A DNA stretch of 48,644 nt, filler included, from Catajapyx aquilonaris (lineage: Eukaryota): the NCBI GenBank assembly GCA_000934665.2. It is 2 parts of 2 records of this genome, joined end to end, with 100 filler letters (N's around TTAATTAATTAA, not from the genome) between each part and the next. Parts side by side here need not be neighbours in the genome. Positions count along the whole stretch, not along the records: positions 1 to 24,243 come from JYFJ02005550.1; 1 more part is not named here. One strand, 5' to 3'. Positions 5,034 to 44,592 of this stretch are shown piece after piece. Position numbers and translations under genes: made by a program. Numbering within the stretch: position 1 is the first letter of the stretch; each line of letters opens with the position of its first letter. Under the pieces are notes generated by a model. The model saw only the letters and a list, made by a program, of their open reading frames with translations. It had not been told where the DNA came from and ran no database searches.

Positions 5034-5714
5034 GCTTGAACTATTAAAATAAAAATTATCTAACTTTCTTGTAACTCCTGCAGATTTACAAACTGAAAAA
5101 CTTGATCAACTGAGAATTATTCAAACAATGATTTTTGCAGTATCTCAATTGATAGAACAAAACTTTGTTTCATTTCTTCATCTTATGTTATTACAAACAA
5201 TTTTAAAAATAGTAACAATTGGTGAAAAAAACAATCTTGGAGGAGATCTTTTAGTCCTCTGGTAGAGAAGCCCTTTCCAGAATTTTAGAATATTTGTTCA
5301 CAACCCCGGCTGCATAGGTGAACCTCATAGTATTCTTTTGACTGTGCTGTAAAGGTGTGTCAAGCACCAGTGCATTAGGTATTCAGTACCAAACTCAAGC
5401 AACATGTGATTTTACTTGCAGTTCACAATGGGAAAGTCATCGGCAATCATCAATTAAGGTGGCATTATTTCTAGTCTCTTATGGGTCACACAGGACAGTT
5501 AAAATCCATATTGGTGAAAATCTGAATATGAACTCAAGTAGACAATTTGGTGTAACAGTGATGTAGGATGTAGGCTAATGCATGGGGCCCACAAAGCTTT
5601 TCAATTATGGTGTAAAAGTTTCTCAAAGGAATATACGAGGGGCGTTCATAAAGTTCACGCCTTTAGGTTGAAGGAAATTAGAGAAATGGTTCAAATTGCA
5701 CACATGTATTAGTC

Positions 5715-5905
5715 ATTCATCATCATCATCATCATCACCATCACGACATTTCCCCCCACCCCCCTGGAAGAGGAATCAGCAACTATTAAGTTCCTCCAAG
5801 TGACTGGAACACCCACAGGCCAGCGAGAAGAACCAGCATACGGAAATCCACACCCGAACTCCAAGTGCTGTGCAGGACAGAGAGAGAGGCAGACACCCTT
5901 GCAAG
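5715..5905 (-). mobile_element. 5'-truncated non-LTR retroposon 3' end
   Basis: 12-bp TSD CATGTATTAGTC (5703-5714, 5906-5917) and a (GAT)n tail on the minus strand. Confidence 0.7.
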
Positions 5906-6174
5906 CATGTATTAGTCCTTCTCTCTATATTAACCCTGCAAAGCCACAATTTTTCCCACCACTACGACCTAGAGACCAAATTACAGAACAAGCAGTGGAA
6001 ACAAAAAACTCTCCACTGGTGAAGAAGGCCAGAATGCAGCCATCATCTGGGGAGGTGTTTTTTCAGGTCGTAAATCACTGGGAAAATTGTGTGGCTTTGC
6101 AGGTTTCATATAGAGAAAAGGACTAATACATGCATGCAATTTGAACTGTTTCTCTCATTCCCTTCAACCCAAAG

Positions 6175-9100
6175 CACAGTGATTCAGATCCAGGTAAAAC
6201 ATGGTCAAAATGTATTTTTTCTAAATATGTGATTTTGAGCCAAAATCGAGTTATTCACATTCACAAATGTCTAGTCCATCACATAGAACACAATTGATCA
6301 CCCCATCTTGCGGCAAATGCCTGCAGCGCTAAGTGAGAGTTGGGACTACTCGCGCGGCTTATGATCTCGGCGAGAAGCCATGTATACCTACCTTTTTTTG
6401 CGTTCTCAAAGGACAGGAATATTTTCAGTGAAAGAAATAAAAAAAATTTCCTACGTCAACTGTTATCCTTACGTTTACTTTAAACACATATATGTCAGGT
6501 TAAAGTCAAGTGTAGTGCTTTAAAAAATGTGTTAGTCATGCCGTGTGACAGTCAAAAACACGTGCGCATTTTTTTCGTATTTGTCGACCTGCAAGATGCT
6601 CCCTGCCTCTCTCCGTGGTTTGTTTGTGTGCACCTGCACCGTGGTGAGTCACTCTATTGGGTCCACAAAAAAAACCTTGCGCCCACGTGCGCTCCTTCTA
6701 AAAATATATTTTTTTATGCGATCGTGCGTGACTAATTTGGTCACAGGCAGGCCTTACTGGTAGTGTGAAGCGAACTGTGGACATGATCGCACGGGCACTT
6801 TTCTGTCCAAATCCTTCAGTGCAGTGAGTTGTGTGAGTATTTGAATGCCTCTAATTTTAGCTAGTGTCATCAGTAGCACAGCGTAGCTTATGTTTAATAT
6901 GTTCAGGTCCAGGCCAGGATGGTAATTAAGATATCACGAAAGGACCTGTTTGGCATTCTTCATGAACAAGGGGGGGCAGGTCGTGCACAGAAGCAAACAT
7001 ACCTGGAGAATTATTTGATCAAGAAACTGCACCTTGAAGAGGAGTGTGATCAGAAGAAGAATGAGATACACATTTTTGTGTCAAAATTCTGCAGCAAGAT
7101 TTTCTCTAGATGGAATGCTGCACAGAGGCATTATGACAAGTTTATGGTGGAAAACGCTGAGTGGCTCAGCAAAGAAGAAGAATTCCAATGTGCGACTGCG
7201 CCTGCCTCCACGGATGCTGGGCCCTCAACGTCAAACACATGTCAGGCAGGACGGCCGAAGAAAAGCTTCCAGGACAGCAGTGAGAGAAGCAAGAGAAGAA
7301 AAACAGAAGATCTTAGAAAATCTTCCAGTGCAGAAGAATTGTCCTTTGCAGCCCAAATGAAGCAGAGAGAGGAAGGCAACGAGGCTGCTGCCAAATTAAT
7401 GAGTGAAGCCAACTTCACAACCCCAACCAGAGCAACAAAAATGAGAGAGGCCTGGAAAAGAAGAGATGACAACCGACAACATGGGACGTACTCAGAAGAT
7501 GAGGCATTGTTATTGGTACTGGAAGCAGACATGACGCAAAAGCAATACGCCATAATGAGATCTAGCGCGAAGGGGAAGCAGTGTGTCCTGTATCCATCCT
7601 ATCACCATGTACTAGAAGCCAAAAAAAGGTGCTGCCCCTCTGGAGAAGACTGCCTTGTGACGGAAAGTACTGCAGAGGTGAAACTGCAGGCGCTCCTAAA
7701 TCACACAGCAAGTCGAATTATAACAGCACAGGAGGCAGTGGTCACTACATTGCCAGACGTCACCAGCTTTGTGTTGATTTCCAAATGGGGGTGTGATGGC
7801 AGTGGTGGCCACTCCCAGTACAAGCAAAGAAGTTCAGAGAAGGGATTCAGTGATGCAGACTTGTTTGTAACATCTCTTGTGCCTCTGCAGTTGTATGGCG
7901 AAACAGCACAGCCAACTGAGAAGAAGATAATTTGGCAAAATCCAAGACCTTCATCAACTCGCTACTGCAGACCCATCCGCCTCCAGTTTAAAAAAGAAAC
8001 AGCGGAGGTTGTGAAGGAAGAACAGGAGCACATTGCAAAGCAAGCTGAAAGCCTGACACCTAGTAGAGCGAATGTGTCAGGGAGAGATGTCAGCATTGCA
8101 CACAAGCTGTACTTTACTATGGTTGATGGTAAAGTATGCCATGCAGTTACGGACACGGCATCCACCCAGAAATGTTATGTGTGTGGTGCAACTCCGAAGG
8201 AGATGAATAACAATGACAACATGATGAAGAAAGAAGCAGATCCAACCAGGTTACATTTTGGATTGTCGACACTGCACGCTTGGATTAGATTCATGGAATG
8301 CTTCCTGCATATTTCCTACAGGTAAGAACTAAAAATTATTTGTGCCGGTACCACTTGTATAAGAGAATGATGAGGTTCCCTCTTCACCTTGCAGGTTAGA
8401 CGTAAAGAAATGGCAGGCACGTGGAGAAGCAGACAAAAAGAGTGTTCAAGACAGGAAAACTAGGATCCAGAAGCAATTTAGAGCGGAATTGGGGCTCCTG
8501 ATTGACCAACCAAAACCTGGAGGATGTGGGAATTCCAATGACGGTAACACTGCGAGGAGATTTTTTCAGGAAGCCTCTTTGTCCGCAAAAATTACAGACC
8601 TGGACGAGACTCTCATTCGGCGCTGTGCTACAATTCTGCGAGCAATTTCATCAGGCTACGATATTGACGCACAAGCTTTTGACGCTTATGCCCTTGAGAC
8701 AGCTCGAAGTTTTGTCTCAAAATATCCATGGTTTTATATGCCTACTACTGTGCACAAAATATTGTTGCATGGCTCCATTATAATTTCGGTTTCAATTCTA
8801 CCTATTGGAATTATGTCAGAGGAAGCACAGGAGGCACGGCATAAGGACATCAGGCATATACGGGAACACCACACCAGCAAGTGCTCCAGGACGGCCACAA
8901 ATGAAGACCTCCTGCACAGATTACTGGAGACTTCCGATCCTCACATTTCATCTATGAGACCACTGCCAAGGAGGAAGGCTAGCAGCATTCCAGCAGAAGT
9001 GCGCCAGCTTCTAAAATCACCGAGAAGTGAAGTTGGATTGGAGCAATCAGATGTGGAAGACAATATCAGCAGTGATAGTGGCCATAGTGATATCAGTGAT

Positions 9101-9392
9101 TAAAATATTTAAAGGTGACTTTTAACTATTAACTTTTCTAAACATTTAACTATATATATAACTTATATGGATTTAAATTTAGCAACCTAATAAACCTAGG
9201 ACAACACTTGTTAAGAAATCAGAGAAGTTTTCTATTTTATATCTGCCATCTTGGACCAGTCATTTTGAATTTCATACACCTGACTTCATATTCGGATTCA
9301 GCAACCTTACAAACCCCAATTTCCCAATTTTCATGTAAATACAACAATCTTGGACATTTTGTCTATGTTTTACGTCGATCTGAATCACTGTG
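6175..9392 (+). mobile_element. full-length Transib DNA transposon
   Basis: 39-bp TIRs (35/39 identical) starting CACAGTG, 5-bp TSD CAAAG (6170-6174, 9393-9397), encodes a Transib transposase. Confidence 0.95.
6919..9103 (+). CDS. Transib (RAG1-core-like) DDE transposase, 2 exons (6919-8321, 8395-9103), 703 aa
   Basis: A 73-bp GT-AG intron (8322-8394) joins LHISYR|LDVKKWQAR in frame. Motifs: KWGCDGS (D293), PSSTRYCRP, TMVDGK (D403), CYVC, LHAWIR, NDGNTARRFF, VHKILLH, SEEAQE (E614). No stops or frameshifts. Confidence 0.93.
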
Positions 9393-9499
9393 CAAAGGCG
9401 CGAACGTTATGAACTCCCCTCGTATGCAAGATTTTCGCTGATATCAATAATTTCACCTAAATTTTTAGATATTGGTCCTATGCCGCCTCGGTGCCTGTG

Positions 9500-9830
9500 T
9501 CTATATATGGGCGAAGTTGGACCGCAGCACTCTGCACTGGAGCTGCCGCATCTATCGTTTCATCCATCGTCGTGCATCGCATCCCGGATGGATTATGACC
9601 ATCAATCCGGTTGTGTGAACAAGACCGTCTCGCCACCCATGATGGACGCTGTGTAGTGCCATTGTGAGAGATGACCCTGCCCTTGTGCCTGGGGCTACAT
9701 GTCTACCAGAAGAGCTTGTACATCATCCCGCCATCCACAACCCCGGTGATCTTGGGGCTGGATTTTCTAAGGTATTGGGAGTGTTCCATCGACATCAGCA
9801 GACAGCTGTTGGTGGGTGCAGTCCCATCGG
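9500..9830 (+). pseudogene. decayed retropepsin-like (LTR retrotransposon protease) fragment
   Basis: PVILGLDFLRYWECSIDI matches the ILGxDFL motif of retroviral-type aspartic proteases. No clear DSG/DTG catalytic motif upstream. Confidence 0.4.
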
Positions 9831-11024
9831 ACGGTACCAGTAGCGGCCCATATGCTTTTTCCCTGCATATCGAGATGTTTAATCACCTGGCACCCGACCA
9901 AGTAGCTGTAATATCGGAAGCGAGTGGAGCTACTGCCCTTCCCAGGATGAACTGGGCGGACGACAACGCTGACCAAGGACAGCCCCCATCGTATAGTGAA
10001 TCCCTCCCCCACCGTTTGGGAGGTGAACCATCAGAGGATGGGGATTGCGATGTTTAATTCATCATGAAGAACCTACATCTGTTTTCTTATTTTTGGACGG
10101 GTTGCCATTGTCCTTTTTGACCATCCCGTTATTTATTTTGTGCGTGCAGATGGAACCAGTGATGAAGAACATCCCCTTGAACTGTATTTGATTTCGAAGG
10201 GTGGGTTGTATCTCCGGTTGGAGGTGTGTGACCTTCCTGAATAACAGGGGGTCTTTAGCCCATTCCATCACCCTTTATTTTCGAGTTGTTGTTGCCTCCC
10301 CATTTACCAATGTGAGATGTACCGTTGCATTGGCGAGGTTGACCTATTTTTCCATCTATGTATATACCGTTAGCTACAAAGGTCTGGTAACCATCATGCA
10401 ACCTGTTCAATACATCAATCCTGTTTCACCTTCTACCCATCATGCATTGTCCTCACCTTACTATTTAACCAACCACCCACGTATACTCCAGGCCAGTTCC
10501 CCGGGAGCATATCCCGGGGGCTAGTCGTTACTCCCGACCTATCACTCTTTACCCATTTCACCTATCCCTTCCTGACTTTTGTTTGTAACGCACGTTTCAA
10601 GGCAGAATAAATCAAAGTACAATGGACCCACTGTTTAATGTGATGCATTCACGTCACACGCAGACCTTTATTTTTAAATGTTTACATTCAAAGGAGCTTG
10701 TGCTGCTGCAATACCTTGGTCCGTGGGATTGTGGGAAAGCGGAGGTTCCCAAGAGAGGGGGCTGTTGTAGTTTTAAGTCATTTCAGACCAATCATTTGTA
10801 CATTAATAATATATGGATGCCCAATTAGCAACATGTTATTATTGCATTAGACATGAACACTTTCTAGGGGTTAGGCATCTCACCCCAACTCCTTTACACA
10901 AAATCCAATTCATCACACAACTCCAGAAAAAGTGTTTAAAAATAAACAATTGTTGTGCACCATCCTCATGCACAAATGTCATGCTCAAGAAACACTGCTT
11001 AATGTTAATCTAGACAATAGTTAC

Positions 11025-16006: not shown

Positions 16007-16402
16007 ATCTGAACTCTGATTTGTGCAGTCATTACGTATATTACAGGCATCCTGTGACAAATTATGACATGGTATATTTATACACTACTGATTACAAGTT
16101 TCATGAACAATATGACAGTGGGACTGACACTGAGGCCATTATAGTGATACAGAATTTTAGGCTTGAGAGAAAATGACCTGGAAGAAGAAAGGAGTACACC
16201 CAACATCATCTGAGGACAACGCCTTGTTTCAACTTCATGTTGAATAAAAAATATTAACAAAACTATTGCACTAAATTGTGGCCATTGCACAACTCCATCA
16301 GTGTCACCATATTTATATAAAAAAAGCAAACATGCATAATTTCATCACTTAAAGTTAAGTGTTGAAGTGTTAAAGTTACATATATAAGGATATGAAACAA
16401 AC

Positions 16403-16744
16403 CTCTTCCTCTCTCCCATGAGTAAGGAGCATGATGATTCTGCCAGCCCTGTTCCTGCCTGTTCTTCCCATCCTTTGTACCATCCTAACAGGCGATTTTT
16501 GGGTATCATAACACACTATAAGATCAACCTCTCCAATGTCAAGTCCCTCTTCTCCAACACATGTGGACACTAGAGTGTTGTACTTTCCTGACTTGAATTC
16601 TTGAATCACTTCCAGTTGCTCCTTCTGGGTGAAGCCTTTTTTGCTCTTAACTCCAGCTACTCCATGGCCCACAAAGCTCATGGGCTTTATTAGGGGATCA
16701 TGACGCCTTAATAACTCGGCAATCTCTTGCACGCTGTTCCGGTA
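16403..16744 (-). CDS. FANCM: FANCM helicase C-terminal (HELICc) exon, motifs V-VI
   Basis: YRNSVQEI...FVGHG...[41 protein letters not shown]...[16 protein letters not shown]. 342 bp, phase 0, canonical splice sites. Confidence 0.97.
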
Positions 16745-30627: not shown

Positions 30628-32404
30628 CAAGCAAACCTCCTAGGTGTGGGGATCTACTTTTTGAGAAAACTTTCAGGAATGATTAAGACTAGCTTCAGGA
30701 TCACTCTGGCATAGTCCAAACCTCTGTAAAATTCCCAGAATCCTCAGAAATTAACTCCAAACCTAATAATTGTGGGAAGCTACTTTTTGCTGAAACTTTC
30801 AGGAATGATTAAGACTAGCTTCAGGATCACTCTGGCATAGTCCAAACCTCTGTAAAATTCCCAGTAGCCCCAGAGATTGCGTCGAAAGTCCGGGCGTACG
30901 ATTGGGTCTGCCGCCCAAACTGACACTTGCAATCGCATATATGAAAAGGTGAACCCAAATGCCCTCTCCGTGCAGCCTAACAGCAAGCACTCTACTTTGT
31001 TTGACTGTGAGCTGTTTTAAACATAAGTTTATGTGGACAAAGTTGGTAATTTATTATTATACAAAAACTGTCAGTTACCCAACTTAATAGGTCCCACAGT
31101 TCGCTGCATCATGCACCTTTTCCAACGAACAGTGATGGAAGCAGAAGCATTTCTTACAGTGCGCACAGCGGAACTCGGAAACCTCAGTGCAGATATCTTC
31201 GGCGCAGTCACAAAGACTGTCAAAGTCAAAAGAGTACTGTACCGGGGTCTCTTCAAAGGCTTCAGGTCGTTCGGGAGTATATCCACACTTCCGGAATGCA
31301 TACTTGACCATATTCTGGAAGCGTGGCGCTTGGAACTGGAAGTGTGCAAGAGCATGAAGCTTCATGCAGCGCTCCCGCTGCCAGACCTTCTCGTCAATGT
31401 CCAGAGAATCAGTTATGTGCCGTACAAATCTCTTGTATGGGCGAAAGTAGTACACGTCCAGCGGCTGAATCATTCCGGTGGTGGTGCCAGCGGGAATGAT
31501 CAGCCGTTCCACCTCGAGCTGGCCGGTGTGGCCGGTGTACGTACCTGGTGGCGACACGCTGGAAGAGTTCACTATTTTTGTTGCTACTCCAAGAGTCGCA
31601 GAGAAGGAGACACTTGGTGACACCCATCTTGACCATTCCTGGATATAGGATTTGGTCCAGGAAAACCTCCATGTCATCGTTTGTCATCATAGCTGTCGTA
31701 CCGGGGAAGGCAGAAATGCTGTCCGGGAATGGTGCCATCCTCTGCGGCCACTTGCCGTGTGGTTCCTGGCTCTTCAGGTACAGTTTGTCCATGATGGTAC
31801 CGGCCATGCTGACAATAGGCATCACCATGTAGGAGTGGGTGGTGGCGGACCTTGAACCAACTTCAACATGCACCTTGTGCTCACCCTTGAAGGTGTGGGT
31901 GCGGTGAGAGTGGAGCTCCTTGTCGAATCGAGACTGGTCGCAGTTGATGACCTCCTCGGGAAGGTAGCCTTTTTCTTGAATTGTAGACTTCACCAATTTG
32001 ACGAACTCTTCTCCTTTGGCTGCGAGCTTGGCCTGGTTCTGCCAAAAACCTCGACCAACCTTGTGAGTAATAGCACGAGAAACGATTCTATGTCGTTTCT
32101 TGAAATTGTAGAGCCAGGTGTTGGAGGCCTTGAACTTCATGTTGGGGAAGAGCATCTTTTTTATTTGGATGGCCCACTGACGAATGCTTCGGTCAGTGGC
32201 ACGGTCGTTTTTTTGCCGCTTCTCGATGAATCGATCTAAAACACGTTGATTGATTCCCACAATTATTAGGTTTGGAGTTAATTTCTGAGGATTCTGGGAA
32301 TTTTACAGAGGTTTGGACTATGCCAGAGTGATCCTGGAGCTAGTCTTAATCATTCCTGAAAGTTTTCTCAAAAAGTAGATCCCCACACCTAGGAGGTTTG
32401 CTTG
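30628..32404 (-). mobile_element. Tc4/Tc5-like (pogo-related) DNA transposon, internally deleted
   Basis: 151-bp near-identical TIRs (30628-30778, 32254-32404) starting CAAGC; TSD TCA; the empty site reads CTCAG. Confidence 0.9.
31084..32253 (-). pseudogene. Tc5-like transposase (CENP-B/Tc5 HTH, DDD domain, Cys-rich tail); 5' truncated with one frameshift
   Basis: FKASNTWLYNFKKRHRIVSR, NCDQS, ATTHSY, LCDSW, TTGMIQPLDVY, C-terminal CAHCKKCFCFHHC. Frameshift at the GTACGTAC duplication (31537-31544). Confidence 0.85.
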
Positions 32405-35314: not shown

Positions 35315-36209
35315 AATAATTATTTATAGACTAGTCATATTATTGTAAGATACTCTTTAAAATGAAGTACATACCTTCTTCTGAAGCTTCCATATTGGAA
35401 CAGTTCACAATTATTTTGTATAACTGAAAACAACACAAATGAATGTGTCGCGCCGTAAATTGGGCTTAACATTAGCTAAATATTACTCGAACTGTCATCA
35501 ACTTTCAACTGCTGGTACGGACGAAGGGTTACACCTATGAGAAGTACAACTGCATGTCATAATAGCCTGGTCATTCATCTGTTCCAGGAAACGAATTTTT
35601 TTGGAATCAGTAACATTTAAAAAAAAATCAAATTTTGTCCAGCTTTTGAAGCCAAATACTACACTGTGCGTCGGTGGGCTGTGTCCAAAATACTTTGATA
35701 TCAAGACTGCTCACGAGTCCGCTCTAGAGACGACTCAAGATATTCTTGGTGGATTAACAGGCATTCGCGTGGTCCGTGTAATAACTGGTTCACAACCTCA
35801 ATACATTATTAGAAATCGCAATGGCCTTATAATTCATCCCACATATACGGGGTGCTCAAAAACTCGCGGAAAGTGGCCACGTAGTCTGATAGGACTCGCA
35901 AAACTAATATAGGGATGTGGAAGTAGTTTTGGGCTAACTTGCACAGTTTTTGCGTACGACGCCTTTAAGATTTGGGGGGTTTCATGACGTCACATCCGCC
36001 TTGAGGCCCCATTCCGTCATCATACATGTTGTTGTGGCTGTTGCCATTGGCACAGGTTATTGTTGCGAATATTGTCAACTGCGATTGTTGAGAAATAAAC
36101 AACGAGTTCAGTCTGGTTATTGAGGTGTCGACTTTTCCTGTGTTCCAAAGTTTCTCACATATTAGTCTTCTGAAGAAGTACACCTTCATCTCAGCTGCTC
36201 ATCCTAGAC

Positions 36210-37042
36210 ATGGCATACAGTGCAAGAGACTACTGTGATATGTATCTGCTGCTGCGTGAGTGCGGAAACGCACACGCTGCGGCAGAAGAGTACGCACGGC
36301 GCTACCCTGAGCGAAAACTTCCAACTGGCAACGTCATCCGAAGATTAGATACACGAATGAGGGAAGGAGGACCAGTCATTCCTCAACAGCTGGTGGACAC
36401 AGGTCGTCCGCGAAGTGTATTGACACCAGCAGTAGAAGAAGATATCCTGAAGATGGTGGAAGTGGACCCAACTACGAGTACGCGTGAAATCGGCCGACGT
36501 CTTCAACTGCATCGCAGCTCTGTCTGGAACGTCATGCACAAGGAGGGTCTGTACCCTTATCATTACATGCGAGTGCAGAATTTACAGCCAGGGGATTACC
36601 CTCGCCTCCGGAAGTACTGCGAGTGGCTGCTGCAGCAGGACGAGGCAGATGACAACTTCGTTAGAAGTATACTCTGGACCGACGAAAAGTGGTTCACACG
36701 TGGTGGAATTTTCAACCATCACAATAGCCACTACTGGGCTGCTGCAAACCCCCATGTCGTCCACGAGGGAAGCTTCCAGGTCAGTGCCCACCAGGCAGGG
36801 TCCCCTTAAATAAGTCACCGTTCCAACTCCTTTGCTGTCCCTGCTGCGTCTACTGTATCTGATAACTGTTCCAGGTGAGGTGGCAAATCAATGTGTGGGC
36901 TGGGATCGTGGGTGACGTCCTTATCGGACCCTACCTCCTCCCAACAAGGTTGTCTGCTGACACTTACTTGTCATTTCTGCGGAGTGTGCTGCCAGAGTTG
37001 CTTGAAGATGTGCCGTTACAAGTACGACAAAGGATGTGGTTC
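36210..37042 (+). pseudogene. Tc1/mariner transposase (DUF4817-like HTH N-terminus), spliced and 3' truncated
   Basis: MAYSARDYCDM...YPERKLP, GRPR, LYPYH, WTDE. A 95-bp intron (36780-36874) joins SFQ|VRWQINVWAGI. Homology is lost where FQHDGA is expected. Probable left TIR TA|CGGGGTG at 35848. Confidence 0.85.
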
Positions 37043-41804: not shown

Positions 41805-44592
41805 TCAGCCATCAGAGAGGTAGGAGAAATGTGCAGACTGCGTCCGCGTCCCTACCCTAATCATTCTCCTCGGATCGGAAGTAGTGGTCATCTGCTGGTC
41901 GTTAAAGTGTAGCCAACTACCTTCACCCTTCACTAAAGCAGTGTAGTGGTTGTAATTCATTGAGACTCCATGGTGTAATAGGATTGTACTGCTTTTGAAT
42001 TGCTTGAATCCAATAATTGATATATGGTAACTAGGTCGAAATCTGTTATGCTGGCGTCCGACCTTTCCCCTCCACTTTCATCGTGACGTTCAAGGTGCAG
42101 GATGAGACAACCGTGTACGTTACTTAAAATGCAGGTCTTGGCAGCAACCCCAGTGCGCTTACAAGACGGGCATGGTACTCCTTCGTCCCTCTGCTGCAAC
42201 AGGACGGAGAGAGACACACACTCTCTCGGCACGATCAGAGAGAGATACCGCCGAGTTTCCTCTGGCCCTTCCCATCTGGCGTGGCAGAAGGAACACTCAT
42301 ATTCATCGTGGCATCGGTGAGTGCCCCAGTCTCTTAGGTGTACAGGCAAATCTTCGAACAGGAATTCGATGAACTCTAAAGAGTCTTGCTGTTCCTCCCC
42401 GTCGAATCCTCTACCCAGAGCTCTTCTGACCCCGAATGACGAGGAAACGACGACGTCATTAGTGGCCGGTGCCGTTGTGTTGGATACTCTCCTCTTCGCA
42501 CGGGGACGCTGAGAAGGTCGGTGTTGTGCGAGAGCTGTTTTTAGGGCCCTTAAAACGCTGTTGCTTCCCTTCGAGGCCGAGATTCTAGTCCTGAGGTCTG
42601 GCTGCACGAAGAGACATACCAAGGCAGCGTTGGCATAGCAAGAAACATTTGGACCTGGATTGTCGAACCCCCTAAGTGATATTTCTGATGCGGAGGAGAC
42701 TGCATGTGGCCGCTTCGTTGTTTTCTTGGGTAAGAGCAATGGAGGCATTGATCGGGTCTCCCGGAGTCTATTGTATTCCCTCACGCAGCTCACGTCGGCC
42801 TTGATGCAGCGTTCATCTAGGCGAAGGATGTGTAGTCTGTCCAGCGCCTGGACTCTCGAGAGCGCGACGTACAGTACGTCATTCCTCTTGCGAACCCGGA
42901 CTTGCTGAGGTCCACCAAAGCGGAATCCAGAGTGAGCCGCTGAGATTTGTGGATGGTGATGGCGTATGCTAGTATCAGTGGAAACCGGACGTGGAAACTG
43001 TTTCCTCTCAGCGTTGGAGCCGAGCTCGAACTTGACAACACACCTGCAGATCGACTTTTCGTCGTTTGGGATGTTGTGAAAGTTGATCTTGACTGACGAG
43101 ATGCGGTGGTTATTCTCCATCCTCCAGCCAGACACGGTGCCCATTGCGCCGTTCACCAGTCCTTCCTGCACGTCGATGTTGCGTCGCAGCATGACGCGGC
43201 ATCCAACTCCCAGGATGAGGACAGTCTCGAGGCCGGCCGTACGCGAGGCGTCCTCTCGCAGACTCTCTAGATGCTTGCTTCCCCTCTTCCAGCCAGCCTT
43301 GTTGCCTGTGAGCTTGTCCTCTGCCTCCAGAAGGACAGTTGTATCCAGGCACGACGCACGAAGCATACGGTGGATGAACTCGTGGCACATGTCGTTGGTT
43401 GGGAGGAGGCACACGGGATTCAATCCTTCTGCCTTGCACCTGCTGTAGATGCTGACGCATGCTTCGTTGTTGCCTTGGATGCCAGCGTGGTGCGGACCCT
43501 GCTTGCCAAGAGATGGAGGGTTGACTCGGAGACTAGGCCCACTCGCACCTCGGCCAGAAGATGCTGGTAGGTGGTGTCCTTTGATTGCCTCATGTTTATG
43601 AGGTGTTCGTCGTAGTCAAAAAGATCTTTCCACAAGTCTAGCGCACGGAGGCTTCTAAATCCGCACCTGCACCGTGAGCATGCTAGAGAGTTGCCGATCC
43701 GGTCTGGAAGTTTGGCCACGTCGCAACCGCTGGCGAATGGAGGGCATCCACCTGGATTCCTCTGTTCTGAAGATGTCATGGAGCTGCTGGAATCGCTTAA
43801 CATATGCGTCTGAGATATGGCAAGTGATGTTGCATCTCCACTTTGCCGAAGGGTCTACCGGGGGAGTCAAGCGTTGGTTGGACTCACCTGTAGAGGGATC
43901 GTCGTAGTGGATGCGTCCACACTCGTCCAGGGCTGGATCACACTCCTCAGTCAGAGGCACTGCAGAGGTCTCCCAAAAGTATGGCTCCGTGTGCTTGGTG
44001 TGAAGACGCTCACCCAATAGTGCAGTAGGGTCTGCTCCTTCTTCCTGGTCCCGCTCTGTGGTTAATTTTTTCTGGATGGTCAGCAGGGAACGCTTTCTTA
44101 GGGAAAATAGCAACCTTTTTTTGTTCAGCGCCTTTAGTACAAGATGCTCGGCCATCTTGTGGGATGCAGACGAGTAGGAATGTCCCTTGCCTATCTTCTG
44201 ATGTCTCTTCTGAAGAGCCTTGTTCAATCTGGCGATCATCCCCTTTTTCTGGTTCTTCGATGCCAGCTGCTGCCGCCTGTCGCGGAGAGAATTGGTCAGG
44301 CGATACTGGATGGCCTTCTTCAAATTTTGGCACTGTTCCTCCTGTAGTGTTTAGCCTTCCTCTTTTTGATCGCCTCTCTATTAACTTTCTCATAAATGGC
44401 CTTCTTCATCCGCAAGGCCTCTCGGTTAACTGCATTATAGACGGCCTGCTTCTTTTGAATAATCTCCTGATTCTTGTTATTGCACCGAGTTTTTCGGCTC
44501 ACCCTAATCTTTTCTTTCTTGTAAATTTGGGAATTTTCTTCAACATACCTCGCCTTGCGGGCTTTGCTGAGTCTCTCTGATTTTTTTGTCAT
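41805..44592 (-). pseudogene. decayed Helitron/Helentron-like ORF: basic N-terminus, PIF1 helicase C-terminal half, USP (peptidase C19) domain
   Basis: PIF1 motifs: INMRQ, CLLPTN, GCRVMLRRNIDVQEGLVNGAMGTV, QFPLILAYAITIHKSQRLTL, YVALSRV. USP motifs: GFDNPGPNVSCYANA, QQDSLEF, CxxC pairs, LILHLER, HHG..NHYT..WLHFND. Several frameshifts. Confidence 0.8.

Follow-up and report, generated by a model that had tools for sequence, protein, structure and literature searches.

A complete Transib DNA transposon with a nonamer-binding-domain-like region in the genome of Catajapyx aquilonaris

It is accepted that the RAG1 half of the V(D)J recombinase descends from Transib transposons. The described systems closest to the locus considered here are the HzTransib transposase of Helicoverpa zea (PDB 6pqn, 6pqr, 6pqx, 6pqy), the insect Transib transposases of about 700 aa (Transib1-5 of Kapitonov and Jurka 2005; Diabrotica LOC126891809), the RAG1 core of jawed vertebrates (3gnb, 5zdz, 6oet, 4wwx), and the ProtoRAG transposon with its transposase BbRAG1L (PDB 6b40). 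We analyzed a stretch of 48,644 nt from Catajapyx aquilonaris (assembly GCA_000934665.2; two parts joined by 100 filler letters, with positions 1 to 24,243 derived from JYFJ02005550.1), hereafter referred to as the window. Positions 6175-9392 of the window are a genuine, complete, autonomous Transib that is probably young. Our overall reading, in which we place considerable confidence, is that of a cut-and-paste DNA transposon with one two-exon transposase gene, the product of which contains a region resembling the RAG1 nonamer-binding domain (NBD), inserted in an older repeat that resembles a miniature inverted-repeat transposable element (MITE).

Published accounts already describe much of the framework into which this element falls. 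Kapitonov and Jurka 2005 reported that Transib transposases conserve the two motifs at the termini of the RAG1 nonamer-binding region, that these proteins carry an N-terminal domain of 100-140 aa outside the RAG1-like part, and that the consensus Transib terminal inverted repeat (TIR) of 38 bp consists of a heptamer, a 23-bp spacer and an A-rich nonamer (PMC1131882), a layout which the present element matches. Tao 2022 described an equivalent NBD with a conserved GRP in both Transib subgroups (PMC9435367), and Martin 2023 listed an NBD with GRPR/K among Transib features, contrasting it with the CCGHC tail of BbRAG1L (PMC10462144). The NBD likeness in Transibs is thus correct and already in print. 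The features of the locus, in window positions, are as follows.

6175-9392, plus strand: whole autonomous Transib, 3218 bp, delimited by a TIR pair and by contigs that join 6169 to 9393
6170-6174, no strand: left copy of the target site duplication (TSD), CAAAG, 5 bp, which fits the empty-site joint on either side
9393-9397, no strand: right TSD copy, CAAAG, 5 bp, a perfect match to the left copy
6175-6213, plus strand: 5' TIR of 39 nt from the inverted-repeat search, with heptamer CACAGTG (6175-6181), 23-nt spacer and A-rich block TCAAAATGT (6205-6213)
9354-9392, minus strand: 3' TIR of 39 nt from the same search, reading on the minus strand CACAGTG, 23-nt spacer and ACAAAATGT
6919-8321, plus strand: exon 1, residues 1-467 and two bases of codon 468; residues 191-467 match HzTransib 8-272
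8322-8394, plus strand: predicted 73-nt spliceosomal intron, GTAAGA...CCTTGCAG, with GT..AG ends and a pyrimidine-rich tract ahead of the AG; its removal restores frame and colinearity
8395-9103, plus strand: exon 2, residues 468-703 and the stop codon; matches HzTransib 274-481
6919-7200, plus strand: N-terminal domain, residues 1-94, small, of alpha/beta type, conserved across the family and modelled with a predicted local distance difference test score (pLDDT) of 90-98
7246-7488, plus strand: NBD-like region, residues 110-190, opening with GRPK (residues 111-114, nt 7249-7260), identified by profile, fold and conservation
7489-9027, plus strand, intron excepted: catalytic core from the domain for dimerization and DNA binding (DDBD) to the C-terminal domain (CTD), with D293, D403 and E614 and zinc ligands C419, C422, H588 and H593, identified by HzTransib alignment and fold
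9189-9194, plus strand: AATAAA polyadenylation-type signal 86 nt past the stop codon, a pattern match only
5633-6174 and 9393-9425, no strand: older MITE-like repeat hosting the Transib, 575 bp with arms of about 85 nt, recognized from inverted repeats and aligned arms

The 703-aa protein is a Transib transposase, both by sequence and by fold. Exons 1 and 2 match the solved HzTransib transposase (6pqn_A) with E-values of 2.9e-54 and 2.9e-57, respectively, and the family profile matches HzTransib at 1e-191, BbRAG1L at 1.9e-12 and mouse RAG1 at 3.8e-10. A search of exon 1 against 5.8 billion proteins returned 1034 relatives at E <= 0.001, the closest of which is 49% identical to exon 1; most of the 120 matches listed are about 650-730 aa long, and the named ones are insect proteins. 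The HzTransib E-values together with these 1034 matches exclude a chance resemblance. The AlphaFold2 model of exon 1 (pLDDT 91.2) superposes on HzTransib 6pqx_A with Z 20.9 and a root-mean-square deviation (rmsd) of 3.1 over 265 residues, and on RAG1 chains with Z 16-17.4. Pfam was less informative: the two exons gave chance-level rows only (one row at E <= 1), and among five full-length relatives PF12940 (RAG1) appeared in three, below or near its cut-off and covering only a C-terminal motif. PF26100.1 is precomputed on many relatives and was not reproduced in our own Pfam search.

The catalytic site agrees with this identification. D293, D403 and E614 align with D126, D225 and E436 of HzTransib (numbering from PMC6941560), and C419 and C422 are invariant in 121 sequences. 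A sequence-only reading of the window had proposed an intact RAG1-like Transib transposase with an uninterrupted spliced open reading frame (ORF) of 703 aa, the three acidic and four zinc-binding residues listed above, a perfect TSD and no accompanying RAG2-like ORF. Every part of that proposal held when recomputed: the frame is open through 6919-8321 and 8395-9103, each of the seven residues lies at its proposed position in the translation, CAAAG flanks both ends, and the other ORFs inside the element do not exceed 118 aa.

Comparison with the four described systems places the element within the Transib superfamily. It shares with HzTransib the superfamily and the core (34-36% identity over 212-265 structurally aligned residues, Z 17.4-20.9), an aligned DDE triad and zinc ligands, and heptamer-type ends with a 5-bp TSD as published (PMC10462144). 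The deposited HzTransib protein differs in being continuous where the gene described here has its intron, and in that its chain begins at the DDBD, with its residue 6-8 corresponding to our residue 191; HzTransib therefore has neither the N-terminal domain nor the NBD-like region, which together occupy about 190 residues. The insect Transibs of about 700 aa are closer in architecture, covering 99-100% of exon 1 at 38-49% identity with both the GRP motif and the N-terminal domain conserved, but even the best of them is only 49% identical and 34 of 45 relatives are without the intron.

The RAG1 core of jawed vertebrates has the same domain order (NBD-DDBD-PreR-RNH-ZnC2-ZnH2-CTD) with a GRP hook opening the NBD, and the DNA ends of both systems combine CACAGTG with an ACAAAA-type second block about 23 bp away; in structural similarity to RAG1, the core reaches Z 16-17.4 and the NBD 5.1. 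In contrast to RAG1, to which identity is 12-16%, the element lacks a RAG2 partner gene and a RING/zinc N-terminal region; 12/23 asymmetry is absent too, since both ends have 23-type spacing, and the element is mobile rather than domesticated. ProtoRAG likewise is a TIR-bounded transposon with a 5-bp TSD and a RAG1-like core (Z 14.2 and E 1.9e-12 for BbRAG1L). BbRAG1L, however, depends on a C-terminal tail with CCGHC, and GRPR/K is missing from its NBD equivalent (PMC10462144), whereas the protein described here has GRPK and a tail free of cysteine, and the element is without the RAG2L gene. The last 43 residues of the transposase contain no cysteine, 9 acidic residues and 10 serines; such a tail is therefore without the CCGHC clamp of RAG1-like transposases, and its combination with GRPK fits, as judged from sequence, the NBD-type mode. 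The features that would mark a RAGL/ProtoRAG element, namely a convergent RAG2-like gene, a CCGHC tail and a RAG1-type N-terminal zinc/RING region, are all absent. In their place the locus has the core homology, the DDE and zinc site, a 5-bp TSD, TIRs of about 38 bp with a heptamer, a spacer of about 23 and an A-rich block, and the single transposase gene of the Transib superfamily.

The spliced frame starts at the ATG at 6919 and comprises 2112 nt, or 703 codons and a stop (9101-9103), with zero internal stops. The exon junction is colinear with Y272-R273-L274 of HzTransib: the intron splits the Arg codon that stands as the single residue between the two exon matches, and colinearity after splicing is therefore exact. 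The canonical ends and the restored frame are the grounds on which the intron is predicted to be real. At the intron site, 34 of the 45 related metagenome loci with coverage on both flanks run uninterrupted in a single frame, 2 carry more than 20 additional nt and 9 differ by -3 to +6 nt; because 34 of the 45 run through without it, the intron is probably a feature of this element's lineage. The same count could be read differently, with the 73-nt segment as an insertion in a real Transib that is now a dead or silent copy. If the segment remained unspliced, a stop would be met a few codons into it; alternatively, private substitutions or host silencing could have inactivated the copy, and the intact frame would reflect mere youth. 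We regard such a dead or silent copy as unlikely. The segment has GT..AG ends and a pyrimidine tract, and without it the frame and the conserved Arg codon are exactly restored; moreover, every catalytic and zinc residue is present, the TSD is perfect and the TIRs are identical at 36 of 39 positions. The sequencing evidence that bears on this alternative is given below with the other copies.

Directly N-terminal of the DDBD, as in RAG1, lies the region that most resembles the RAG1 NBD. The AlphaFold2 models of exon 1 and of residues 1-194 (pLDDT 90.8 for the latter) show a compact domain at 1-94, a low-confidence linker at 95-110, the GRPK at 111-114, helices at 122-187 and the DDBD from about residue 190. 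The segment AGRPKK...TEDL corresponds to residues 110-132 (nt 7246-7314). Conservation is strong: G111 and R112 do not vary in either of two alignments, one with 40 and one with 71 proteins, and P113, F117, K125, R126, L141, A144, G153, P169 and A172 are each kept in at least 90% of the 40 aligned proteins. Against mouse RAG1, the profile places the family GRP and basic stretch (RSKRRKTEDLR here) on the GRP and basic stretch of RAG1 and then continues colinearly into the DDBD; the GRP stretch has a conditional E of 3.7e-4 inside a match that is significant overall. In a structure search of the N-terminal model that was independent of Foldseek and covered 48,161 representative chains, the RAG1 NBD-DNA crystal structure 3gnb_A ranked sixth and was the top match for the NBD-like domain, with residues 110-166 of the model superposing on RAG1 389-456 (Z 5.1, rmsd 2.0 A, 57 of 68 residues, 12% identity). 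A chance match is unlikely, because the top match is the very domain that its place within a homologous protein leads one to expect. When compared with the exon 1 model, RAG1 chains that include the NBD align from model residues 105-119 onward; they have about 40-60 more aligned residues than chains that lack it, with a Z that is not higher. The region thus combines a GRPR/K hook at its N-terminal edge, a helical fold superposable on that of RAG1 (Z below 8) and a position immediately before the DDBD. We consider it very likely that residues 110-190 are homologous to the RAG1 NBD.

The sequence-only reading had reached the same assignment by eye, and the superposition of residues 110-166 on 3gnb_A, set beforehand as the test on which the NBD-like region would stand or fall, supports it. 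The GRP is at 111-113 as proposed, the profile itself returns the pairing of GRP with GRP, and the suggested pairing of MTQKQY.. with SQYHKMY.. of RAG1 falls where the profile alignment runs colinearly. Several results nevertheless weigh against homology. Taken alone, the GRP stretch scores 4.8 bits, with an independent E of 67; Z 5.1 is under about 8, in a range where a common helical arrangement can give such scores; and Foldseek, run with the 194-residue N-terminal model, gave 180 matches at E <= 10, none of them at E <= 0.001 and, among those listed, no RAG1 chain. The rmsd of the whole model against NBD-containing RAG1 chains is 11-14 A, so the two parts do not behave as one rigid body, which we presume reflects a flexible hinge. 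GRP-type hooks and basic clusters are commonplace, and low scores with 12% identity are what would be seen if residues 105-190 were not an NBD homologue at all, but a generic AT-hook followed by a nuclear-localisation signal (KRRK) and a helical linker, with a convergent or trivial likeness. This explanation appears improbable for several reasons. Three independent registers agree, in that the profile sets GRP on GRP, the structure sets 110-166 on 389-456, and both regions end where the DDBD starts. The RAG1 NBD is the top match for the domain among 48,161 unrelated representatives, conservation extends well past the hook (from F117 to A172 in the residues listed above), and the published alignments agree (PMC1131882, PMC9435367, PMC10462144).

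The N-terminal module as a whole is widespread. Residues 1-194 match 904 of 1.84 billion cluster representatives at E <= 0.001 and 192 at E <= 1e-10, and nearly all of the 150 matches listed align at their own N-terminal ends. Its first part, residues 1-94, is a family-specific domain. The best fold matches are winged-helix DNA-binding domains (E2F-DP 1cf7_B, Z 6.6, rmsd 2.6, 68 aligned; E2F8 4yo2_A, Z 5.3), and the I-beta subdomain of Mu transposase matches at Z 4.1; this model-based winged-helix likeness is weak, as every Z is beneath the level of a safe fold call. No Pfam family was found for residues 1-94, and the ESM Atlas was uninformative for residues 1-100 (score 0.75). A RAG1-type N-terminal zinc/RING region was not seen, with Pfam blank at E <= 1 bar one chance-level row and the model without a zinc-finger match. 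The retrieved excerpts of the literature on Transib and winged helix contain no account of this domain, the term there referring to the phage Mu transposase (PMC6941560).

Both ends of the element fall outside the span 6919-9103 that had been noted earlier. Each TIR consists of CACAGTG, 23 nt and (T/A)CAAAATGT, a layout of 7+23+9 nt, and the pair is 90% complementary. The first 16 nt are identical in the two TIRs and have no further occurrence in the window. The resemblance of the two ends ceases at TIR position 39, and no subterminal repeats were found inside the element beyond the 39-nt TIR. Non-coding flanks of 744 bp 5' and 289 bp 3' of the gene complete the element. No RAG2-like gene was found within 6175-9392, where all other ORFs overlap the transposase frame, and such a gene is excluded because the flanks leave no room for it.

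A pair of A-rich blocks spaced about 11 bp apart lies within each TIR, namely TAAAAC at positions 21-26 and CAAAAT at 32-37 (window 6194-6201 and 6206-6211, mirrored in 9354-9392). CAAAA occupies TIR positions 32-36 at both ends and is a candidate nonamer site; the second block is similar to the nonamer of the recombination signal sequence, ACAAAAACC, as quoted in PMC1131882. TIRs were compared across elements by searching 80 related metagenome loci, of which 8, representing 6 distinct elements, gave TIR pairs; with the element in the window this makes 7 elements and 14 TIRs, which are akin, so that their counts are non-independent. A CAC-type heptamer opens all 14 TIRs, CAAAA lies within positions 31-37 in 12 of the 14, an A-run lies at positions 20-27 in 10 of the 14, and the two-block layout is seen in 6 of the 7 elements. 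Two observations tell against a conserved nonamer site: L008, one of the 7 elements, is without the CAAAA block at both ends, and with the register held fixed, positions 31-39 carry 0.87 bit of information, little more than the 0.67 bit of the spacer. The weakness of the latter contrast arises because the second block moves by one base in some elements. The related full elements on metagenome contigs (L002, L006, L008, L062-L064, L073 and L076) are 2.5-4.2 kb long with CAC-type heptamer ends, and L073 has a perfect 5-bp TSD, CATTG.

The two A-rich blocks, one helical turn apart, could be linked to residues 1-94. According to the boldest form of this idea, residues 1-94 would add a third module for binding DNA, of winged-helix type and absent from RAG1 and HzTransib, that acts with the NBD-like domain on the blocks at 21-26 and 32-37, and the copy in the window would be a live three-module Transib. 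We put this forward as a doubtful though not far-fetched possibility. If true, a three-module Transib could be used to test the pre-RAG origin of nonamer reading and of spacer rules.

If the mechanism follows that of HzTransib and RAG, a transposase dimer would pair both 39-bp ends, with the core reading the CACAGTG heptamer and the NBD-like domain, perhaps itself dimeric, reading the A-rich block (CAAAAT) 23 bp further in, its GRPK hook lying in the minor groove. The DNA would then be nicked and hairpinned on the flank, and the excised element would integrate with a 5-bp stagger. The gene is predicted to be spliced, and the element may be active at present.

Sequencing data from the same organism offer signs of recent mobility. 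We assembled the picture from contigs of public DNA runs over 5400-10100, and two limits temper what can be drawn from them: three of the runs derive from a single sample, possibly the one from which the assembly was made, and the fourth is small, and summed contig depth is not equal to copy number. Junction contigs that span the two ends (6022-6203 and 9365-9879) show zero differences from the window. In each run, one contig joins 6169 to 9393, with 5 letters that fit either side; these contigs are the flanking repeat without the insertion, i.e., paralogous empty sites, and they therefore confirm the ends of the element and its TSD. For the contig 7378-8524, depth is 82-96 as compared to 23-26 for 9365-9879 in the flank, and 6 of its 1147 positions depart from the window; together these values suggest a few near-identical copies in the organism. 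Other contigs pass from 6931 to 8456, from 7092 to 7263 and from 7405 to 9140, skipping 1524, 170 and 1734 nt, respectively, and look like internally deleted derivatives of this Transib. In a small 2022 run, one contig carries two of these deletions.

Compared to the commonest contigs, 16 coding variants were listed, 8 synonymous and 8 non-synonymous, with none at a catalytic or zinc residue. The 8 non-synonymous differences speak against a functional copy and favour the dead-copy explanation. On the intron, by contrast, the contigs count against the dead-copy explanation: 7378-8524, at its depth of 82-96, has no listed variant inside 8322-8394 and, as far as the listed variants go, matches the window across the segment, so that the higher-depth copies appear to carry the intron too. 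The equal numbers of synonymous and non-synonymous variants also bear on whether the locus could be a domesticated RAG1-like gene that serves the host. A ratio of 8 to 8 exceeds the neutral expectation, which with 16 sites is weak evidence, and the frame with its intron is intact. Intact TIRs and TSD, contig depth several-fold over that of the flank, deleted derivatives, paralogous empty sites, and the nesting of the element in a repeat within the territory of another gene all contradict domestication, which we regard as scarcely credible.

The significance of the element lies in its use as material. Because HzTransib, for which structures are in the PDB, is without the nonamer-binding part, a Transib that is complete, young and NBD-bearing and has clean 23-type ends offers a usable natural pair of substrate and enzyme. 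It could serve to test whether the reading of nonamers by a GRPK-type NBD is older than RAG, and for annotation it identifies an autonomous source element. As such Transibs have been published and the N-terminal module occurs in 904 representative clusters, the copy adds an example, not a principle.

The surroundings of the element are themselves informative. The MITE-like repeat in which it is inserted reaches contig depths of 600-2700 compared to about 25 for unique flank, and the contigs diverge at 5633 and 9424. Farther along the window, the minus-strand ORF 16379-16744 contains Helicase_C (E 1.2e-19) and matches the Fanconi anemia group M protein 9el5_A (FANCM) at E 2.7e-50; nearly all named relatives among the 120 listed are FANCM, and the ORF is at most 73% identical to any of those 120, with similar scores against mammals, molluscs, a sponge and crustaceans. 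These values indicate that the host is probably an animal from a sparsely sampled group, and a vertebrate host was rejected on the strength of them. Colinear FANCM exons were mapped by tblastn on the minus strand at 23414-23157, 20417-20154 and 16774-16382, and weakly at 14465-14328, while no FANCM exon was found below 14.3 kb (E <= 5). The element had been proposed to lie antisense in a FANCM intron. The half of this proposal that concerns the upstream side stands, as FANCM exons lie there on the minus strand, but no exon was found downstream. An antisense intronic position is plausible from the exon map, because FANCM proteins run more than 1000 residues past the last mapped exon.

For the minus-strand ORF 830-2947 (705 aa), assignment as a FANCM exon found no support, with no tblastn hit at E <= 5, no Pfam family and no homologue of similar length; the ESM Atlas was uninformative for it (score 0.77). 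Candidate explanations for this frame are a long exon that evolves fast, in FANCM or elsewhere, and an unrelated element. Other transposon remains are present elsewhere in the window. At 31027-32302 (minus) and 36174-36806 (plus) there are Tc5/pogo-type transposase fragments (HTH_Tnp_Tc5, E 1.4e-09; Transp_Tc5_C, E 5.2e-10) together with a Tc1-like HTH ORF (DUF4817, HTH_32). At 41957-43615 (minus), an open frame of 552 aa combines a Pif1 2B domain (E 5.7e-07) with a UCH (ubiquitin hydrolase) domain (E 1.1e-05), an association which we take to suggest a Helitron-type element.

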